Shown in pieces: positions 1-49,794 of a stretch of 64,000 bases of DNA. A model generated the notes under the pieces. That model ran no database searches. It had not been told where the DNA came from and saw only the letters and a list, made by a program, of their open reading frames with translations. A program made the translations under genes and the position numbers. The DNA is from Alphaproteobacteria bacterium (lineage in GTDB: Bacteria; Pseudomonadota; Alphaproteobacteria; UBA828): assembly GCA_965214705.1 (NCBI GenBank), contig CBDCCI010000001.1, positions 64,001 through 128,000 on the forward strand. Direction: 5' to 3'. Numbering within the stretch: the first letter of the stretch is position 1; the number at the start of each line of letters is the position of its first letter.

Positions 1-1443
1 CAGTCTCTCATCGCCTCGTCCATCGACCTTTTGGGCCTGCCTGCCGAAGTCGCCGAAGCGGTCGCCCAGGTGGTGGAGTTCTGTCGCGAACAGGCTGGGT
101 CTGACCCGTCTGCCGAGACGTTCGAAACGGTTGAGACGGGGCTGCGGGACGCCATGAACGGCTTGGGTTGCAAGCTCCTTGGGGCCTTCGCCGAGAGCCG
201 CGACGACGGTGCGAGCCGGATCGAGCGCGACGGACAGAGCTGGGTCCGGGTGGCGGCGACGCCGAAGACGATCATGACGACGCTCGGTCCCGTGACCTAT
301 CGGCGTGCGCGCTATCGCAGCGGCGCGAGCAGCACGTCGCTGGTGCCGGTGGACGAGAGCCTGGGCCTCATCGACGACTACCTGACGCGGCCGGCGGCGC
401 AGCTCGGGCTGATGATGATGGGCCACTGTACGCCGCGTGAAGCGGAGGAGTTCTTCGCGAAAATGGGCGGAATGACGCCGTCGGTGAGCACGCTGCAGCG
501 CCTGGCCCTGAGCATGCATGAGCACTGGGAGAGCGTCGCCCCGGAGACGCTGGCCAGCATCCGTGAAACCCAGGGCATACCGCCCGATGCGGTCACCGCG
601 TCCGTCTCCCTTGACGGCGTCATGGTGGCGCTGCGGGCCGGCGAGGACGGCCGTGCCGAGGCGTGCTGGCGCGAGGCCTCTTGCGGCACGGTCTCCTTCC
701 ACGACGCCGAGGGCCAACGGCTGAAGACCCTCTATCTCGGCCGTATGCCCGAGAGCGGCAAGGCCGCGCTGAAAGCGCAACTTGCAAGCGAGGTCGCCCA
801 TATCCGCCGTGTGAGCCCGAAGATCAGGATCGGCGCCGTCGCCGACGGGGCCGCCGACAACTGGACCTTCCTCGAAAGCCTCTCGCCCGAGACCGAGGTC
901 ATCGACTTCTGGCACGCTTGCGAGCATCTCCGCGTGGCCTCTGACCATGCGGTGGCGCGCCACTGGTTCGAGAAGCACCGCGAAATCCTGCGCCACGACC
1001 CCCGCGGCGTCGACAAGGTGATCCGGGCACTGCGCTACCTCCTGGACAGGGCAAAGGGGGACCCGGCCGAGATCGAGCGCGAGCTGGCCTTCTTCCGAAA
1101 GCACCGCCATCGGATGCGCTACCACGCCCTGAAGGAAGAGGGCATCGCCATCGGCTCGGGTGTGGTCGAGGCGGCCTGCAAGACCCTCGTCGCGCAGCGC
1201 TTGAAACGCTCGGGCATGCGCTGGCGGATCGACGGCGGGCAGGCGGTTCTGACCTTCCGCGCCCTGATCAAATCCGGCCTCTTCGACCGGGCATGGGATG
1301 CGCTCATGGACGCCCGATCCGGACCAGCTAACGACAACATCAGCCCAACCGAAGTCCTGGCACTCGCTGCTTGACCAAAATGAACCAGCCCATATCCTTT
1401 AGCGCCATCACGACTGGCATATCGCCATACGAGAATCACACCC
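1..1443 (+). mobile_element. ISKra4-like insertion sequence, right end at about 1443; left end outside window
   Basis: Sequence ends GAGAATCACACCC (1431-1443) exactly where kinase homology on the minus strand stops; a ...CACCC end fits this family as I recall it. Confidence 0.7.
31..1374 (+). CDS. ISKra4-family (UPF0236-like) DDE transposase; true start may lie left of the window
   Basis: 447-aa ORF with SLDGV, VADGAADNW, IDFWHACEHL and IGSGVVEAACK...RLKRSGMRW motifs typical of ISKra4/ISLre2-like transposases. Confidence 0.85.
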   Translation: MGLPAEVAEAVAQVVEFCREQAGSDPSAETFETVETGLRDAMNGLGCKLLGAFAESRDDGASRIERDGQSWVRVAATPKTIMTTLGPVTYRRARYRSGASSTSLVPVDESLGLIDDYLTRPAAQLGLMMMGHCTPREAEEFFAKMGGMTPSVSTLQRLALSMHEHWESVAPETLASIRETQGIPPDAVTASVSLDGVMVALRAGEDGRAEACWREASCGTVSFHDAEGQRLKTLYLGRMPESGKAALKAQLASEVAHIRRVSPKIRIGAVADGAADNWTFLESLSPETEVIDFWHACEHLRVASDHAVARHWFEKHREILRHDPRGVDKVIRALRYLLDRAKGDPAEIERELAFFRKHRHRMRYHALKEEGIAIGSGVVEAACKTLVAQRLKRSGMRWRIDGGQAVLTFRALIKSGLFDRAWDALMDARSGPANDNISPTEVLALAA

Positions 1444-3389
1444 GATCGCCGGCTGACCAGGGTGAGAGTCGGCTCGTAAGCGCCCCCCTCTGAACCATCG
1501 GGACCGGGATCCGCTGCGTCCGCGGCTTCCTCGGCGCGCCGTCTCTCGGCAGTCGCCTGGCAAGCGTTGCTGACCAGATTGAGGAAGACGCGGCCCACGT
1601 CCTGAGTGACGACGTCGAGCGATCCGACCGCCGGATCGAAGTCCTGGACGATGTCGAGCTGAAAGCCCTCATCGCTTGCCCGGGCGCTGTGGTAGGCAAG
1701 CCGCACATGCTCGTCGAGCAAGGCATTGATGTCCGTCGGTTGCCGGCCGCCCGAATCGCGCCCCATGCTGAGCATGTGCTGTACGATCTGGTTGGCGCGC
1801 TCGCCGTGCTCCCGAATTAATCTGAGGTTTTCCGTGATGTCGGCGCTGATCTCTCGGATCAGCGCACTGCTCTCGTCCTCCTTCCCGTCGACCGGCTCAG
1901 GGAGGACCGTTTGCAGCTCTTCCAGGAGTTCTTCCAGCAACTGCTCCGTTACGTCTGAAAAGTTCTTGACGAAGTTCAGCGGGTTCCGGATTTCGTGCGC
2001 CACGCCGGCAGTGAGCTCGCCAAGCGCCGCAAGCTTCTCCTGCATGACGATCTGATCTTGTGCTCGCTGAAGGTTCGCGAGTGCGTCCTCGAGCTGCTCG
2101 TTCTTGCCCTTGAGCTCCTCTGCCAGCTTCTCGACCAAGTTAAGCCGTTGGACTTCGAGCGCGTGACGGCGAAAGACCTCCAACGCCGCGGCCATGTCCG
2201 CGACCTCGCCTCGTCCGTCGACCACCACTTCCGCTTCGATATCGCCCTCGGCCATCCGGCGCATCCGATCCGAGAGCCGCCCGAGACGCCGCATCAGCAC
2301 GCGGCCGACGAACAGCCATGAGATCAGCACCGCCCCGACGATGCTGGTCACGCTAATCGCAAGCAGCAGATTGCCGCCGGTACTGATCGCCGTCGAGGAC
2401 GCCTGAGCCGCGTCTTGGACGCTCTCACGCGCCGCGCTGACCAGCCCCTCTGCCTCGGCGGCGAGTTCGACAGCAAGATTGTTGTTGGACGCGAGCAACG
2501 CCGTCTGACGCTCATCGAGAGAAAGTTCGTGAGCCCGCAAATCGAAGCCTTGATCCTGGCCCAGACCCAGATCGACGAGACGGGACAAGGCGGGTGCAAT
2601 CCTGGCATGGAGGGGCGTGGCGCCCAGGGCCGACAGGCCGCGCTCGATCTTGCCGGCGGAGGCCTCGAAGCGCTCCCGGAGCGGTTCCAGCAGGGCGACG
2701 TCTGAGAGGTCGAACGCGCTCGCCAGAAGCTGGATCGCAATCGTGGCATTTGCCTGCAATCCCGCCATGTGGCGGTAGCGGTTGATCTCCTCCTCCGACA
2801 TGTGCACCGCGCGGGGCGCCGGCGTCTCGCCGAGTGCCCGATAGCCCGTCATCGTGTAGAAGAGCTGGTCGTCGATGGCCGGAATTAATGCTGCGGCAAG
2901 CTCCCTTTGCAGGGCTGCGATTTCGGCACGCAACGCCTCGCTGCGCTCGGCGAGCAGGAAGCCTTCAGCCACCGACTCCTCGATGGCGCCGACATTCGCG
3001 AGCAAGGCATTGCCTTGGGCGCGAATGCGCTCGAAGCGCGGCTCCTCCGCTCCTTGATCCGGCAGCGCCGCCACCTGGGCTTCGAAGGCTTGGCGGTCAT
3101 GTGAGATATCCGCGACGGTGTGGGCGAGTTCTTCCGGCGTCGCTGCGGCGGTCAGCCGCGGCCCGGCGGCGACGAGAGCACCGCTTTGCTGCGCCACGCC
3201 GAAGGCCGTCACCATCTCTGGCACGCTGCCCTCGTTGACGCGGCGCTGGACGTCGCCCACATGATCGAAGGAGACCAGACCGACCAGACTGGCGACAACG
3301 GTGAGCGCGACGGCGCCCCCGATACCCAGATAAAGCTGGGTCGAGAGTCGAAAACGACTGTCAAGCAGCCGTCTTGCCAACGTGGTCAT
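1444..3389 (-). pseudogene. Sensor histidine kinase (TorS-like periplasmic domain, HAMP, HisKA) truncated in the HATPase domain by the IS
   Basis: Two TM segments, HAMP (GEVADMAAALEVFR), H-box AGVAHEIRNPLNF, N-box NLVSNACQA; G1/G2 boxes missing and the frame runs into IS sequence. Confidence 0.85.
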
Positions 3390-4573
3390 GGCTGCACGGC
3401 GAGCCGAAGTGTGTCGATGGGATGGTAGCGGCCGTCCCCACCGATCACGGTAACGAAGACGGCGTCCGACCCCTGATTGTCACCCTCGCCATAGCGAAGC
3501 CCGAAGCCATCGAGGTCGATGACTTCAGCGCGGCGTAAACTGTCCAATAGGCAGGACCGGTCGATCTCACGTCCACAGCGCTCGAGACCCTCGATCGCGA
3601 GGCGGCCCGCCAGGTAGCCCTCGAAGGAGACGAAACCCGGTGAGGCTTCTGGTGAATTGGCCGCCAGCGCCCGGCGATACGCAACAGTGACCGCAAGCTC
3701 GTCGCCGTCAGGAAAGGGCACCACCTGGGTCACGAAGACGCCGGTCCCTGCGGTGCCAAGCTCTCTTGCCAGAGCGTTGCTGCCCACGAAAGAAATGGTC
3801 AGAAAGACCGGATCGAAGCCGATGTGCCGCGCCCAGGCGATCAGCGCGGCGACCGGCTCATAGGCCCCGATCAGGATGACGGCTTCGGGATCCAGACGCT
3901 GCACGTCGAGCAGTGCCGTTTTCACCGCGGTCGTGTTGCGCGGATAGACCCCGATCACCACCGGCTCCAGCTCGCGCCGCTCGAGCGCCCGGCGCACCCC
4001 GCGATAGCCGGCCTGCCCGAAGGAATCGTCCTGATAGATCACCCCGACCCCGTCGATTCCCAAGTCTCCGATCAGGCGGGAGACCATTGCCTCGGTCTCC
4101 TGGTAGTAGGACGCGCGCAGATTGATCACGTTCCGCCACTTGGCATCGCGCAGAAACTCGGCACCGGTAAATGGCGCGAGATAGGGAACGCCCATATCGG
4201 CAGCGATAGGGGCGGCGGAGCGAGAGGTCGGCGTGCCGACCGCGCCGATCAGGGCGAAGACACCATCCTCCACGACCAACCGGCGCGTATTGACGATCGC
4301 GGCCTCCGGCTCGTACGCGTCGTCGAGAGACCGAAGCGCCAGCGTGCGCCCGTGCACGCCGCCGCGCTGGTTTGCTTCCTCGAACGCCGCCTGGATACCG
4401 AGCCGCAGGTTCTTACCCAGGTCCTGCGCGGGACCACTGAAAGCCGCCGATTGTCCAAAGAGGATCTGCTGGTCGGTCACTCCGGGCTCTTCCGCCTGCA
4501 CCGCCGCGGCACCCGGAAGTGTGAACCAGACGGCCATGAGGAGGGCCGAGGGCAAACCACTTGCCCACCTCAT
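3386..4573 (-). CDS. Periplasmic ligand-binding protein (type I, LivJ-like), orphan; overlaps the kinase start
   Basis: Signal peptide, FGQSAAFSGPA, DDAYEP, GAVGTPT, NLRASY motifs; ATGA overlap with kinase; start at 4573 chosen from the signal peptide. Confidence 0.85.
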   Translation of the reverse strand: MRWASGLPSALLMAVWFTLPGAAAVQAEEPGVTDQQILFGQSAAFSGPAQDLGKNLRLGIQAAFEEANQRGGVHGRTLALRSLDDAYEPEAAIVNTRRLVVEDGVFALIGAVGTPTSRSAAPIAADMGVPYLAPFTGAEFLRDAKWRNVINLRASYYQETEAMVSRLIGDLGIDGVGVIYQDDSFGQAGYRGVRRALERRELEPVVIGVYPRNTTAVKTALLDVQRLDPEAVILIGAYEPVAALIAWARHIGFDPVFLTISFVGSNALARELGTAGTGVFVTQVVPFPDGDELAVTVAYRRALAANSPEASPGFVSFEGYLAGRLAIEGLERCGREIDRSCLLDSLRRAEVIDLDGFGLRYGEGDNQGSDAVFVTVIGGDGRYHPIDTLRLAVQP

Positions 4574-4722
4574 CCGCTTCCCTGTTGTATCGTTGCGGGT
4601 TGGACGCTCTAGCGCTCGCTCTGCGGGCGCGGCGGGGCCACCTCGCTTGCACGAGACGGGAACGCGTCGAAGCTCCGCCGCTTGTCGCTCAGCCGCGTCG
4701 AAGCGGGAACAGAGCCTAACAC

Positions 4723-46202: not shown

Positions 46203-47125
46203 CTAACCGGGCTCGGCTGCGTCAACCGGAGCGTCCAGCGCCCGGCAATCTTCTGCAGCCCAGCCCAGGTTGACGTCCGTTCCCTCCCGCAACGCTGCAT
46301 GCCGATCTGTGTTGGGAATCTTCACAACGAACTCGTCAGCTCCCGCGACCGACAGGCGCGCACGGATATGATCTCCCAGATAGATCAACTCCTCGACGCG
46401 ACCGACAATCGAGTTATCCGCCTCTCCGTCTTCGCATGCGACGATAACGCGCTCAGGACGGAGCGAAAGGGTCGTGCGTGCGCCCGCTCCCTCGACCTTC
46501 ACATTGAGGGCTCGAATGGTGCCACCACCATCCAAATTCACCTGGCAATGGTTCCCTTCAACGGAATTCACCTTGCCGCACAAACGATTGTTCTCGCCGA
46601 TAAACTGCGCAACGAAGGCGTTCTCCGGTTGCTCGTACAGCGCGCTAGGACTTGCTAATTGCTGAATTACACCATCATTAAAGACCGCAATCCGATTGGA
46701 CATGGTCAATGCTTCGGACTGATCGTGCGTGACGTAGACGATCGTGACGCCGAGCTCTTCGTGAAGATGCTTGATTTCGTACTGCATCTCCTCCCGCAGA
46801 TTCTTGTCCAAGGCGCCGAGAGGCTCATCCATAAGCACCAAGTCAGGCTCGAATACCAATGCCCGTGCCACCGCCACGCGTTGCTGCTGGCCGCCCGAGA
46901 GTTGACCGGGCCGGCGGCCACCGAAGTCCGGCAGGCGAACCATGTCCAGCGCGCGCTTGACTTTCGCCTCGACCTCCGATCTCGGAATCCTTCGAACTTT
47001 CAGAGGAAACGCCAGGTTCTCCGTGACTGTCATGTGCGGAAACAGCGCGTAATCCTGGAAGACCATGCCGATATTTCGTCGATGCGGCGCAACTTTATTG
47101 ATCGGACGGTCGTTCAAATAAATTT
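46203..47125 (-). pseudogene. PotA-like ABC ATPase, C-terminal part
   Basis: VFQDYALFPH, LSGGQQQR, DEPLGALD, TOBE-like tail; Walker A lies at 49582-49794. Confidence 0.92.
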
Positions 47126-47221
47126 GTAACTGCCCAGGTCTGATTCCGCCGAGCACTCACGCGTGATGGACTGATGCCTCTGGCCTGGTGCCGCTGACGT
47201 GGAGCGGAGCGGCGGGGGATT

Positions 47222-48763
47222 TCAGAAGCGCAGTACCGGGATTAGCTGCATGGGATCGGGGTGCGCCAGGGTTTCGAGGACATTCCAGCGCTGTTTTCGA
47301 GCGGTGGCGATGACGGACCGCAGGTTGGCGAAGTCGCAGGCACCTTGCATCGAGCGGAAGCCGCCTGAGATTTTCTGACGCAGCTTGCCCATTCGCAGAT
47401 CGCGCTCCGCCTCATTGTTCGAGAACGGGGTTCGCGGGTCGGTGAGGAAGCGCAGGCAGCCCTCCTTGTACTTCTGGAGCCGGAGCGCGAGGTTGTGACC
47501 GATGCGGCGCTTTTGTCGTCCGCGCTTTCCGGTCTGGAGCGGCGGCATCTCTTCGTGAGCGGCGATGGCACGTTCGAGGATGCGGTCCCAGGCTCGCGAG
47601 ATGCGGGCGACCAGCGATGCGGGCACGTCGCGATCATTCTTGCGGGCGAAGCGGGCGGCTCTGTTGGCACGGGAGAGCAGCTGGTGCATGCTCGTTGCCC
47701 AGTCTTCCTTCTCGATCTCGATCAGGGCCTGGAGCTCACGCAGGTGATGGGCGTTGCAGGCCCCGTGGCGCACGCCCTCGAGAGCGAAGTAGGTGGCATA
47801 GTCGTCATGGATGACGATGCCGTTGAGCTTCTCGTCGAAATGGCCGCGCCCGCTGGCGACGCGCAGGATGGTCAGCAACGGGGTGCACAGCACGTGGAGC
47901 CAATGGGTCCGGGCGGCGATGCGGATGCCGGTCTCGTCGAGGTGTTTGACCGGGGCTTCGGTGCGGATGATCTCTGCGACACGATCGAGGAAGCCCTCGA
48001 AGCGCCGGGCGGTGCGCCTGCCCATGGCGGCGATGGTGGCCGTTGAGATCTTGACCGCGAAGAGATCGCTCATGACCTCGGCGACGCGCTTCTCCGGAAT
48101 GAACTGAGCGTGCAGCAGGTAGGTCACCCACGCGGTGATGCGCGGCCCGTACTGGACCGGGGCGCTCACGCCGTTCGGGAAGGCGGCTGTTGTCATGGTG
48201 CCGCAGGCGGCGCAGAGGCAGCGATGGCCGCGATGCTCGGTGGCCTCGAGGGGCTGCGGCTCGGGCACATCGAAGACCTGCCGGCAGACGGGGGCTCCGT
48301 GACGGTCGGCGTCCGACAGCGGCGCGCCGCAGCCCTCACAGGCGGACGGATCATGATCCACGACGTGGTCCGGGTTCTCGGTCCGCTCCAGGGTGGTTCC
48401 CTTGTGGCCCGGCTGACCGCCGCTGGGCCTGTCGGATTTGCCGCGCCGGCTCCGGGTGCGCTTCTCCTGGTCTGCGCTCTTCTTCTTCAGGCCGTCGCTG
48501 GCCGGCGGCCTGGAGCTGGTGGTGCTGTCGAGCGCGGCGCTGCGCTCAAGTTCGGCGATCCGCTCGCGCAAGCGGGCGTTCTCCCGCTCCAGCGCGTCGT
48601 TCTCCTTGACCAGCGCCGCGCTCAGGCGAAGCAGCCCCTGGCCCCATTCCCGGATGGCTTTGACGGCGGTCATCGCGAAGGATTGTGGGGTGAAAAGGTC
48701 CTGCAGGCACGCGAAAGCCTCGTCGTGAGCGGCGAGGTCCGCGTGCCAGCGCGACACTGTCAC
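47222..48763 (-). CDS. IS66-family transposase (single-ORF, ISBst12-like)
   Basis: Coiled coil then SSRPPASDG, GGQPGHKG, CxxC pairs, HLDETG, HDDY, CNAHHLREL, NNEAERDLR..K.RQKISG. Confidence 0.93.
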   Translation of the reverse strand: MTVSRWHADLAAHDEAFACLQDLFTPQSFAMTAVKAIREWGQGLLRLSAALVKENDALERENARLRERIAELERSAALDSTTSSRPPASDGLKKKSADQEKRTRSRRGKSDRPSGGQPGHKGTTLERTENPDHVVDHDPSACEGCGAPLSDADRHGAPVCRQVFDVPEPQPLEATEHRGHRCLCAACGTMTTAAFPNGVSAPVQYGPRITAWVTYLLHAQFIPEKRVAEVMSDLFAVKISTATIAAMGRRTARRFEGFLDRVAEIIRTEAPVKHLDETGIRIAARTHWLHVLCTPLLTILRVASGRGHFDEKLNGIVIHDDYATYFALEGVRHGACNAHHLRELQALIEIEKEDWATSMHQLLSRANRAARFARKNDRDVPASLVARISRAWDRILERAIAAHEEMPPLQTGKRGRQKRRIGHNLALRLQKYKEGCLRFLTDPRTPFSNNEAERDLRMGKLRQKISGGFRSMQGACDFANLRSVIATARKQRWNVLETLAHPDPMQLIPVLRF

Positions 48764-49429
48764 AAACCCTCGTCAGCCTCGACGGCCATGATCGCGGCCA
48801 GCACCGCCAGGCGTTCGCCCGCCGGCATGGCCTCGTAGCGCCGGCCCCAGTTGGCCGCCTTGCGCTTGATGCGCTGGCGGTCGGTGAAGTTGCGGCCCGC
48901 GTAGCTCGCCCAGTGCACCCGGTCGGGCGCGAAGTTGAACCACACCGCCTCGGTCCGCACCTGGGCCTGGGTCGTCACCTGCAGCGCCAGCCGGCGCCAG
49001 CCCGCCAGCAACTCGTCATAGAGCGCAGACGGGTGGCCCGAGACCATCACCTGGCAGGGCAGACCCTTGAGCAGTTCGAGGAGCGCGACGTGGTCGGCCT
49101 CCTCGTACTCGAAGCGGTAGCGCTGCGACGAACGCCGGGTCGCGTGCAGATAGGGCGGATCGCTGTAGACCAGCTCCGGGCCCAGGAACGGGAACGAGGC
49201 CAGGAAGGAGTGGGCGCAGCCGTGCACCAACTCCACCGGGTAGCCACAGTCGAAGGACTCAAGCGCCCGCTCGTCGCGGTCAATCCCGATCGAGCGCACG
49301 GCCGCAGGCTTGCGCTTCATCAGCGCCCCGCCCCCCCAAGTGGCTCTCGATATAGACAGAGTGCGGGGGCATCAGCGCAATCAGCGCCTGGCTCAGACCG
49401 GTCGTCGCCTTCGATCCGAAATACCCCAC
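48760..49429 (-). pseudogene. Dam-like (D12 class) N6-adenine methyltransferase, about 222 aa, with a +1 frameshift in a G7 tract
   Basis: GAGGAG RBS, GTG; GYFGSK, MPPHSVYIESHLGG|GALM, GID, YSDPPY; tract at 49331-49337; GTGA overlap with the transposase. Confidence 0.85.
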
Positions 49430-49581
49430 CGGCTGCTCCTCTCATGCGAGAGAGCAACCCATAGGCGAGCGTGCCTATACAGTCAAGGGCAGATCATCGA
49501 CGCGCCGACGGACAAACGGCACCGGCGGCGACCAACATCAGCACGCACTCAGATCTGGCGGCGGGGTACCTGGGTAGTTAC

Positions 49582-49794
49582 ATAAATTTCTCCATGAGTA
49601 GCCGGCTCAAAGCCAGCCAACATCATCAAGCACGTTGTCTTGCCAGATCCCGAGGGACCCAACATCGTCAGGAACTCACCGGTCTTGATGCTTAGATTGA
49701 GGTCCTTGACGACCAGGATCTCGCCGTCGTAGCTCTTCTGCACGCGGTCGAAGACCACGATATCCGGGGTATCGGTCGTCATCAAAACACCCAT
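49582..49794 (-). pseudogene. PotA-like ABC ATPase, N-terminal part
   Basis: [23 protein letters not shown], ending GEIY at the IS junction. Confidence 0.92.

Follow-up and report, generated by a model that had tools for sequence, protein, structure and literature searches.

Insertion sequences (ISs) of the IS66 family have terminal inverted repeats that start with GTAA. In canonical IS66, accessory genes occupy a slot upstream of the transposase gene, and to our knowledge the function of these genes, tnpA and tnpB, is not known. The subject of this work is an element at positions 47126-49581 of a 64,000-nucleotide (nt) stretch of alphaproteobacterial DNA (lineage UBA828; contig CBDCCI010000001.1, forward-strand positions 64,001 to 128,000), denoted the window. 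The element represents a lineage of IS66 in which an accessory gene and a control region are new. By sequence and operator, its first gene is placed in the Upf31 family of plasmid proteins, and by fold it is a relative of DNA adenine methyltransferase (Dam).

The genes of two small DNA-binding proteins, IS1 InsA and IS911 OrfA, lie upstream of the transposase gene and are expressed together with it, and the proteins limit transposase expression. Both are related to the transposase itself, as fragments with a helix-turn-helix, and their binding sites are the terminal repeats. Control of the transposase promoter through methylation is a recognised means of linking transposition to replication. 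Control of IS10, IS50, and IS903 by the Dam of the host is cited in PMC9296519.

Upf31 has been studied by Elg and colleagues (bioRxiv 10.1101/2024.02.05.579024; Mol Biol Evol 2025, PMC11997246), who describe Upf31 of pBP136 as giving no Dam-type GATC methylation and no signal in SMRT (single-molecule real-time) sequencing. The GATC-sensitive digests used DNA from cells with the whole plasmid pBP136Km (PMC11997246), and the SMRT test used the cloned open reading frame in E. coli ER2796, with no palindrome-bearing plasmid as described (10.1101/2024.02.05.579024). The full-length hybrid R751/pBP136 Upf31 lowers a reporter at its own promoter from 4.76 to 0.09 XylE units, and the likely operator is given as inverted CAGCATCG repeats (PMC11997246). 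The protein is described as a "globular domain plus C-terminal dimerisation domain" (10.1101/2024.02.05.579024), of which the C-terminal domain is required for the phenotype and is predicted to dimerise (PMC11997246). The authors keep methylation by Upf31 possible. Their survey of homologues was a BLASTN search of PLSDB, and the words transposase and insertion sequence are absent from the text searched (PMC11997246).

The element and its Dam-fold gene

The element is complete, is 2456 bp long, and contains only two genes between its repeats, both on the minus strand. Its features and those of the interrupted host gene are as follows, with lengths of proteins in amino acids (aa).

47118-47125, no strand: target-site duplication, left, ATAAATTT; the same 8 bp stand at 49582-49589
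47126-47141, no strand: terminal inverted repeat, transposase end, GTAACTGCCCAGGTCT; pair I24 of the repeat search, an end conserved in related elements
47222-48763, minus: IS66-family transposase, 513 aa, with a GTG start overlapping the upstream stop; matches NF033517, PF03050, and DUF6444
48760-48763, minus: GTGA stop/start overlap of both genes; the same 4-nt overlap occurs in 73 of 80 related genome loci
48760-49429, minus: Upf31-family Dam-fold gene, predicted to be without a target-recognition domain, frameshifted (pieces 49280-49429 and 48760-49320)
49150-49161, minus: codons of the DPPY motif
49331-49337, minus: G7 run (C7 on the plus strand), the frameshift site; G6 in intact copies, alignment column 246
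49418-49464, minus: 5'-leader hairpin, with the -10 box/right operator arm paired with the Shine-Dalgarno sequence and start codon
49457-49486, minus: candidate operator, a promoter-like TTGACT box overlapped by 8-N10-8 arms CTGTATAG-N10-CTATGGGT
49566-49581, no strand: terminal inverted repeat, Dam-like-gene end, minus-strand reading GTAACTACCCAGGTAC
49582-49589, no strand: target-site duplication, right, ATAAATTT
46203-47117, minus: interrupted ABC-transporter ATPase (potA/ugpC-like), C-terminal part; ABC_tran E 3.6e-19, TOBE_2 E 1e-18
49590-49794, minus: interrupted ABC-transporter ATPase, N-terminal part; ABC_tran E 3.2e-9

The inverted repeats are imperfect and have GTAA at the start (GTAACTGCCCAGGT at 47126-47139, with the complement at 49568-49581). 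The terminal pair returned by the repeat search is 15 nt long and 93% complementary, and GTAACTRCCCAGGT is present at both element ends. An 8-bp direct repeat, read from the sequence, flanks the element. Removal of the element and one repeat copy in silico yields a single 377-codon host frame with Walker A and LSGGQ motifs, and the halves of the split gene match ABC_tran and TOBE_2. A sequence-only reading of the window had described a complete element with GTAA repeats, an 8-bp duplication, a split potA-like gene, and two genes joined by a GTGA overlap, and this anatomy is borne out.

The transposase scores 285.1 bits against NF033517 (cut-off 180) and 135.3 bits against PF03050 (cut-off 23.1; E 3.5e-39), with DUF6444 at its N-terminus (E 2.5e-10). 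The DDE transposase type, the 8-bp duplication, and the GTAA-starting repeats place the element in the IS66 family. No tnpA or tnpB (PF05717) lies upstream of the transposase. The transposase itself is of the single-gene (ISBst12-like) kind, and with its conserved second gene the element falls into neither the canonical three-gene IS66 group nor the single-gene ISBst12-like group. Its nearest named transposase relatives in PLSDB are of the ISGst1 and ISGka4 families, at 34–37% identity, and a megablast of the whole element against PLSDB gave no match.

The upstream protein is only distantly recognizable from its sequence. PF02086 is its sole Pfam match and a weak one (14.6 bits against a cut-off of 22, E 0.028), its TIGR00571 score of 25.6 bits is below the curated family cut-off of 114.85, and a sequence search of the PDB returned only DpnM (E 0.55). 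Its homologues are recorded as "DNA adenine methylase" or "phage DNA methylase". The AlphaFold2 model, for which 56 relatives were used, has a mean predicted local distance difference test score (pLDDT) of 93.2 and a predicted template modelling score (pTM) of 0.87. Residues 1-167 of the model superpose on residues 8-270 of E. coli Dam (2g1p) with Z 17.7 and a root-mean-square deviation of 2.2. Similar values are obtained for T4 Dam residues 5-259 (1yf3; Z 17.5, 151 residues aligned) and for DpnM (Z 16.8). Because only 147 residues are aligned across Dam 8-270, about 100 Dam residues are without a counterpart, which supports a protein predicted to keep the catalytic core without the target-recognition domain. 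The tail of the model consists of two long Arg/Lys-rich helices, 181-200 and 203-221. In the alignment of relatives, G5, H23, G32, D90, P91, P92, and H113 are invariant (56/56), and K7, E28, G34, and Y93 are at least 90% conserved. The predicted structure and the alignment thus agree with the sequence-only reading, which had claimed a Dam-like protein without its recognition domain, a basic helical C-terminal tail, and the methyltransferase motifs; of these, motif X, motif I, and DPPY show no or almost no variation.

A recognition domain retained in longer relatives was considered and rejected, as their insert is of low complexity. Two other relatives, P0248 (573 aa) and P0191 (484 aa), are fusion proteins that also contain a C5-cytosine DNA methyltransferase domain (PF00145).

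The one homologue that has been characterised is Upf31 (upf31.0 of IncP-1beta plasmids such as pBP136, R751, and pAKD31), with 43% identity over 222 residues (E 3e-61) and all motifs kept, including DPPY. In the model, the Dam core followed by two C-terminal helices matches the domains described for Upf31. A protein search of PLSDB gave 198 records, all below 60% identity, with the family at 42–54%; 134 of the 198 plasmid records are conjugative. No IS66 transposase adjoins the plasmid homologue in the four PLSDB records inspected.

Spread and conservation of the gene pair

A protein search returned 3057 clusters at E <= 0.001, of which the best 120 are 71–96% identical and 185–264 aa long, and 513 clusters (50% identity) were obtained at E <= 1e-30. 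Two sets of loci were examined. The genome set holds 80 loci kept of 324 species-genome loci that encode a close relative; these come from 14 assemblies, often with many copies per genome, and the assemblies carry the labels Alphaproteobacteria, Dehalococcoidia, Binatia, and Tectimicrobiota. The metagenome set holds 80 loci kept of at least 575 stretches found with a single query, the more distant member P0126. Loci of the first set are of the kind seen in the window, termed A-type, and those of the second are of another kind, termed B-type.

All 80 genome loci have a same-strand IS66 transposase, 70–95% identical to that of the window, behind the gene, with two interrupted by insertions. The pair recurs in 77 of the 80 metagenome loci. 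Spacing is tight in both kinds, with a 4-nt overlap in 73/80 A-type loci and gaps of mostly 3–30 nt in B-type loci. In the B-type, the Dam-like protein is 65–74% identical to that of the window and the transposase merely 27–35%, while still a clear PF03050 member (E 1.1e-39). B-type elements share the GTAA start, and their transposase stop codon lies inside the terminal repeat. The nearest transposases without a Dam-like gene are 53–55% identical to the A-type and in the source genome belong to 1.7-kb single-gene elements. The two linked transposase lineages are therefore further from each other than from unlinked relatives. The A-type transposases linked to the Dam-like gene also share a conserved N-terminal extension of ~45 residues that is absent from the nearest unlinked ones.

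The pairing is widespread in environmental bacteria. When 400 evenly sampled genomes of the phylum were searched, just two besides the source genome had full-length relatives, which shows patchiness and says nothing of absence. The sequence-only reading had left room for a one-off capture and had looked to shared phylogeny of the two genes; the recurrence of the pair speaks against the former, and the protein distances of the two genes do co-vary (Mantel r 0.77, with 0 of 999 permutations as high, for 84 unique pairs), a result that overstates the signal since the rows are related. The relation has a step: at Dam-like distances of 0.25–0.35, the transposase distance jumps to ~0.70. In a quick, unrooted tree, the IS-linked proteins form one clade apart from plasmid-type relatives (100 in the approximate likelihood ratio test, SH-aLRT). 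The A-type group (100) is nested among the B-type with weak support (83–88), and this nesting is treated as a lead. Together, the tree and the distance step would fit the capture of a cassette with the Dam-like gene by a second IS66 lineage.

Ratios of nonsynonymous to synonymous substitution (dN/dS) between lineages are 0.19–0.30 for the Dam-like gene (0.08–0.37 with the closest pairs) and 0.25–0.40 for the transposase, and the Dam-like protein is the better conserved of the two in every lineage pair. By these ratios, the Dam-like gene is under purifying selection at least equal to that on the transposase. Its frame is intact in 77/80 A-type loci and that of the transposase is uninterrupted in 57/80, counts that favour the Dam-like gene because the loci were retrieved with its protein as the query. 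The combined evidence supports the Dam-like gene as a real conserved component of the element and not a chance capture. The arrangement had been put forward as undescribed, and a literature search, which did not cover ISfinder, TnPedia, or the supplements of Elg and colleagues, found no description of an IS66 element with this gene.

Two features of the locus sets are recorded as observations. At loci L032-L042 (OZ219790/OZ219791; L038 is from another assembly), the Dam-like frame is intact at 219 aa in the 10 of 11 from this genome, and in every copy an early break interrupts the transposase frame (first frame 97–172 aa), mostly at the same place. This could reflect a non-autonomous lineage that depends on an outside transposase, a recoding site, or a systematic assembly error. 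Among the metagenome loci (L114-L193), many contigs are 2.2–2.9 kb long and end at, or a few bases from, the TTAC end of the element, which is expected because assemblers break at repeated ISs.

Twelve full-length copies at 97–100% identity and two copies at 82%, plus fragments, are present in the source genome, whose three contigs total 7.92 Mb. Each of the 12 full-length copies is flanked by an 8-bp duplication, and each duplication is a different 8-mer. The element is active and multi-copy in this genome. An intact Dam-like frame of 222 aa is present in 7/12 full copies. In the window, a single additional G in a run of six (G6 to G7, 49331-49337) divides the gene into two frames, and the same extra G is found in all five copies of a sub-lineage that includes the window copy and whose members are 0–1 bases apart. 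Contigs of four other public runs (X1, X5, X15, and X18) have one base fewer at the G run, which is the intact form. Since these contigs and the seven sister copies are intact, the break is a lineage-specific mutation.

Further variation surrounds these copies. A 21-nt in-frame insertion at window position 48474, in the basic linker of the transposase, is found in four genome copies and in the X5 contig. The two 82%-identity relatives (G000 C1:1549935-1552294 and C1:1553980-1556339; L194) are identical and inverted to each other. Between their Dam-like ends, which point toward each other, is a 1.7-kb spacer with a 177-aa frame. The Dam-like frame is intact in both (226 aa), a shift affects the transposase frame close to its C-terminus, and no match was obtained for the outermost ~85 bp at the Dam-like-gene end. 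At G000 C1:3368541-3373798, a single-gene IS66 relative with a 496-aa transposase is flanked by inverted tnpA/tnpB-like frames (151 and 116 aa), which looks like a nested or rearranged insertion. In the coral metatranscriptome run X15, contigs cover a 90–99% identical relative (47126-49500) at a word depth of ~1000–3400, and one contig terminates exactly at the element end 47126. These contigs suggest expression of the element; DNA can occur in such libraries, and they are not counted as evidence.

The promoter palindrome and the proposed role of the protein

Upstream of the IS genes is a conserved block, TTGAC(A/T)-nn-ATAG-N10-CTATG(C/G)TG. The layout common to plasmids and ISs is a TTGACA box overlapped by an 8-N10-8 palindrome, CAnCATAG-N10-CTATGnTG. 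In the B-type, the palindrome is often perfect (CAGCATAG-N10-CTATGCTG), the left arm overlaps the TTGACA box, and the right arm overlaps a TATGCT box 17 nt downstream. The upstream repeat takes the form TTGACAGCATAG-N10-CTATGCTG in B-type ISs and TTGACTGTATAG-N10-CTATGGGT in the window type. The corresponding sequence before upf31 of pAKD31 is TTGACAGCATCG-N10-CGATGCTG. In a Xanthomonas plasmid, the gene for a homologue of 54% identity is preceded by CAACATAG-N10-CTATGCTG and closely followed by a second palindrome.

The palindrome pattern is present in 73/80 A-type and 58/79 B-type loci (131 of the 159 with enough upstream sequence), at 56–58 or 61–69 nt before the start codon. Over 1.9 Mb searched on both strands, just two of 133 matches fall elsewhere. 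The arms are constant, each keeping a CAT with a conserved adenine in both plasmid and IS versions, and the 10-nt spacer is variable, with 53 distinct B-type versions. The palindrome stands at the promoter, outside the terminal repeats, and the Dam-like protein is the sole protein common to the plasmids and ISs that carry it. Downstream, almost every element can fold a leader hairpin in which the -10 region is paired with the ribosome-binding site and start codon; that of the window copy has -28.1 kcal/mol (z -2.4). Most of 48 distinct leaders give a hairpin, and the consensus of 20 B-type leaders has 14 pairs, five of them with compensatory changes.

Some palindromes are found at a distance from the gene. 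Extra 8-N10-8 palindromes, CATCATCG-N10-CGATGATG, lie away from the upf31 promoter at 1440 and 2136 of pAKD31 (L096), and an extra CAGCATAG-N10-CTATGCTG lies away from the promoter of the gene at 4668 of the Xanthomonas plasmid (L093). These would fit the dispersed repeat groups described for IncP-1beta plasmids.

Because the IS genes and upf31 have the same promoter-overlapping palindrome, a DNA-binding autoregulator is pointed to. The account to which we give slightly better than an even chance is that the element encodes an autorepressor cassette that drives and restrains its transposase. Gene, promoter, and operator would form one cassette common to plasmids and ISs, with the transposase placed behind it in the ISs. 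The Dam-like protein would bind the palindrome as a dimer, probably through its C-terminal helices, and so close the promoter for its own gene and the transposase gene alike. Negative feedback, dependent on copy number and exerted in trans on every copy, would then govern transposase synthesis: expression would peak when the element reaches a cell that has none of the protein and would be low as copies build up. The leader hairpin, which covers the ribosome-binding site and start codon, may hold translation low as well. For the IS protein, the binding of the palindrome, the repression, and the limit on transposition are proposed on the strength of Upf31 homology and conserved anatomy.

Several points weigh against this account. 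Its basis is a homologue of 43% identity, from which binding and repression by the IS-borne protein are inferred. The palindrome of the window lineage is imperfect, its arms sharing ATAG/CTAT and little else. A strict sigma-70 scan of 47000-49700 gave no promoters; the evidence for a promoter in the window copy is instead its conservation and the better B-type hexamers (TTGACA-17-TATGCT). The conservation of DPPY and of the motif-I glycine is easier to explain if catalysis, or binding of the cofactor or base, still matters, and is the chief objection to a purely structural role; the C5-cytosine methyltransferase fusions among relatives fit a methylation role. Many loci are near-identical, non-independent copies within the same genomes, and the 77/80 count of intact frames is biased toward the protein used as query. 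Finally, the frameshifted sub-lineage, with its five near-identical copies, still reached five sites, so the protein is not required in cis; it could come in trans from the seven intact copies.

The sequence-only reading had interpreted the element as an IS with an epigenetic writer of its own, serving to regulate or mark the ends or as a shield against restriction. What stands of this interpretation is a conserved component that travels with the transposase. The writer and the shield are unproven and, as written, unsupported, given that Upf31 shows no GATC methylation or SMRT signal and represses its own promoter. A narrower form has some credibility, although it is considerably less likely than autorepression: the protein may be an active site-specific N6-adenine methyltransferase that targets the palindrome of its own promoter, and possibly other sites of the element, so that methylation sets promoter activity or repressor binding. 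The same modest likelihood attaches to its consequence, that the element would have an epigenetic switch of its own, linking the expression of its transposase with replication or with arrival in a new host. The invariance of D90, P91, P92, and G32 and the near-invariance of K7, E28, G34, and Y93 are in keeping with such an enzyme, as are the superposition on Dam, T4 Dam, and DpnM (Z 16.8–17.7), the conserved adenine within the CAT of each arm, and the relatives fused to C5 methyltransferases. The published SMRT strain is described without a palindrome plasmid, so operator-restricted methylation would escape that test, and Elg and colleagues themselves keep methylation possible. However, Upf31 is reported as negative both in SMRT and in the GATC-sensitive digests of DNA from pBP136Km cells, the sequence-reading domain of every solved Dam relative is absent, and the profile scores (14.6 against 22 for Pfam, 25.6 against 114.85 for TIGRFAM) fall below the cut-offs. 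A bolder version, which we hold a shade more doubtful, is a private mark: the protein would methylate the conserved adenine in each arm of its own-promoter palindrome only, the methylation state of the element would set transposase expression (open after replication or entry into a naive cell), and the cassette would have passed among conjugative plasmids and at least two IS66 lineages of deep divergence.

Other roles are less probable. A transposition cofactor, in the place of TnpA/TnpB, would bind the transposase or the element ends and aid or restrain the transpososome. The tight coupling of the protein's synthesis with that of the transposase, the ~45-residue N-terminal extension of linked A-type transposases, and the occupation of the upstream accessory-gene slot of IS66 lend this role some appeal. 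It is nonetheless unlikely, as B-type transposases start differently and are without the extension, the palindrome is at the promoter and not in the terminal repeats, and plasmid homologues work without an IS66 transposase. A complex prediction for the Dam-like protein with transposase residues 1-200 scored 0.00, was run without controls, and is no evidence either way. Orphan methyltransferase cargo, protecting element or host DNA from restriction after horizontal transfer, would be in line with the many homologues on conjugative plasmids (134 of 198 matching records) and with the methylase labels of source records. It is quite improbable in view of the lack of methylation reported for Upf31, the absence of a recognition domain and hence of an evident way to cover a restriction site, and the fixed operator and operon with the transposase, which are unexpected for cargo. 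Moreover, an IS moves inside the cell, where DNA is already modified. That the gene is a decaying or neutral passenger with no function for the element is very hard to credit: the window copy and its four sisters are frameshifted and have spread, but dN/dS is ~0.2, no lineage pair has a transposase as conserved as the protein, 77/80 loci and 7/12 genome copies keep the frame intact, and other public runs show the intact frame at the frameshift site.

Relation to known systems

The Dam-like gene is a third kind of IS66 accessory gene besides tnpA and tnpB, and one that brings a testable mechanism and a defined DNA site. The Upf31 family, described as nearly confined to IncP-1beta plasmids, reaches far wider, and one conserved branch of it is tied to transposases. 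Mobile DNA may have acquired a sequence-specific regulator by reuse, or perhaps continued use, of a methyltransferase fold. The label "DNA adenine methylase" is carried by many records, and the published evidence urges caution in reading it.

Compared with Upf31, the element's protein is alike in length (~220–225 aa), in its motifs, and in having a globular Dam-like domain with a C-terminal helical domain, and in both the plasmid and the IS an 8-N10-8 inverted repeat overlaps the -35 box of the promoter. The two differ in context: upf31 is a plasmid backbone gene beside parA and trb genes with no transposase behind it, its proposed partner KorB is without a counterpart in the IS, and its arms are CAGCATCG as against CAnCATAG. 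Compared with the Dam family (D12, alpha-class; E. coli Dam, T4 Dam, and DpnM), the protein shares the catalytic Rossmann core, the N-terminal GxK motif, motif I, and DPPY. It differs as a Dam-like protein predicted to be without the ~100-residue target-recognition domain and with an extra C-terminal helical hairpin, it scores under the family cut-offs, and activity was undetected in the one relative tested, Upf31.

Among ISs, the ISBst12-like group of IS66 is the nearest, with an IS66-type DDE transposase that has a DUF6444 leucine-zipper region, 8-bp duplications, and GTAA repeats, and the sister elements in the source genome are single-gene. The element differs from this group by its extra, conserved first gene with an operator of its own. 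In IS10, IS50, and IS903, the methylase is that of the host and the site is GATC, whereas here the Dam-derived protein is the element's own and its methylation is putative. IS1 InsA and IS911 OrfA resemble it in gene order and co-expression; in place of their helix-turn-helix fragments and terminal repeats, the element has an enzyme-derived fold that would bind an internal palindrome.

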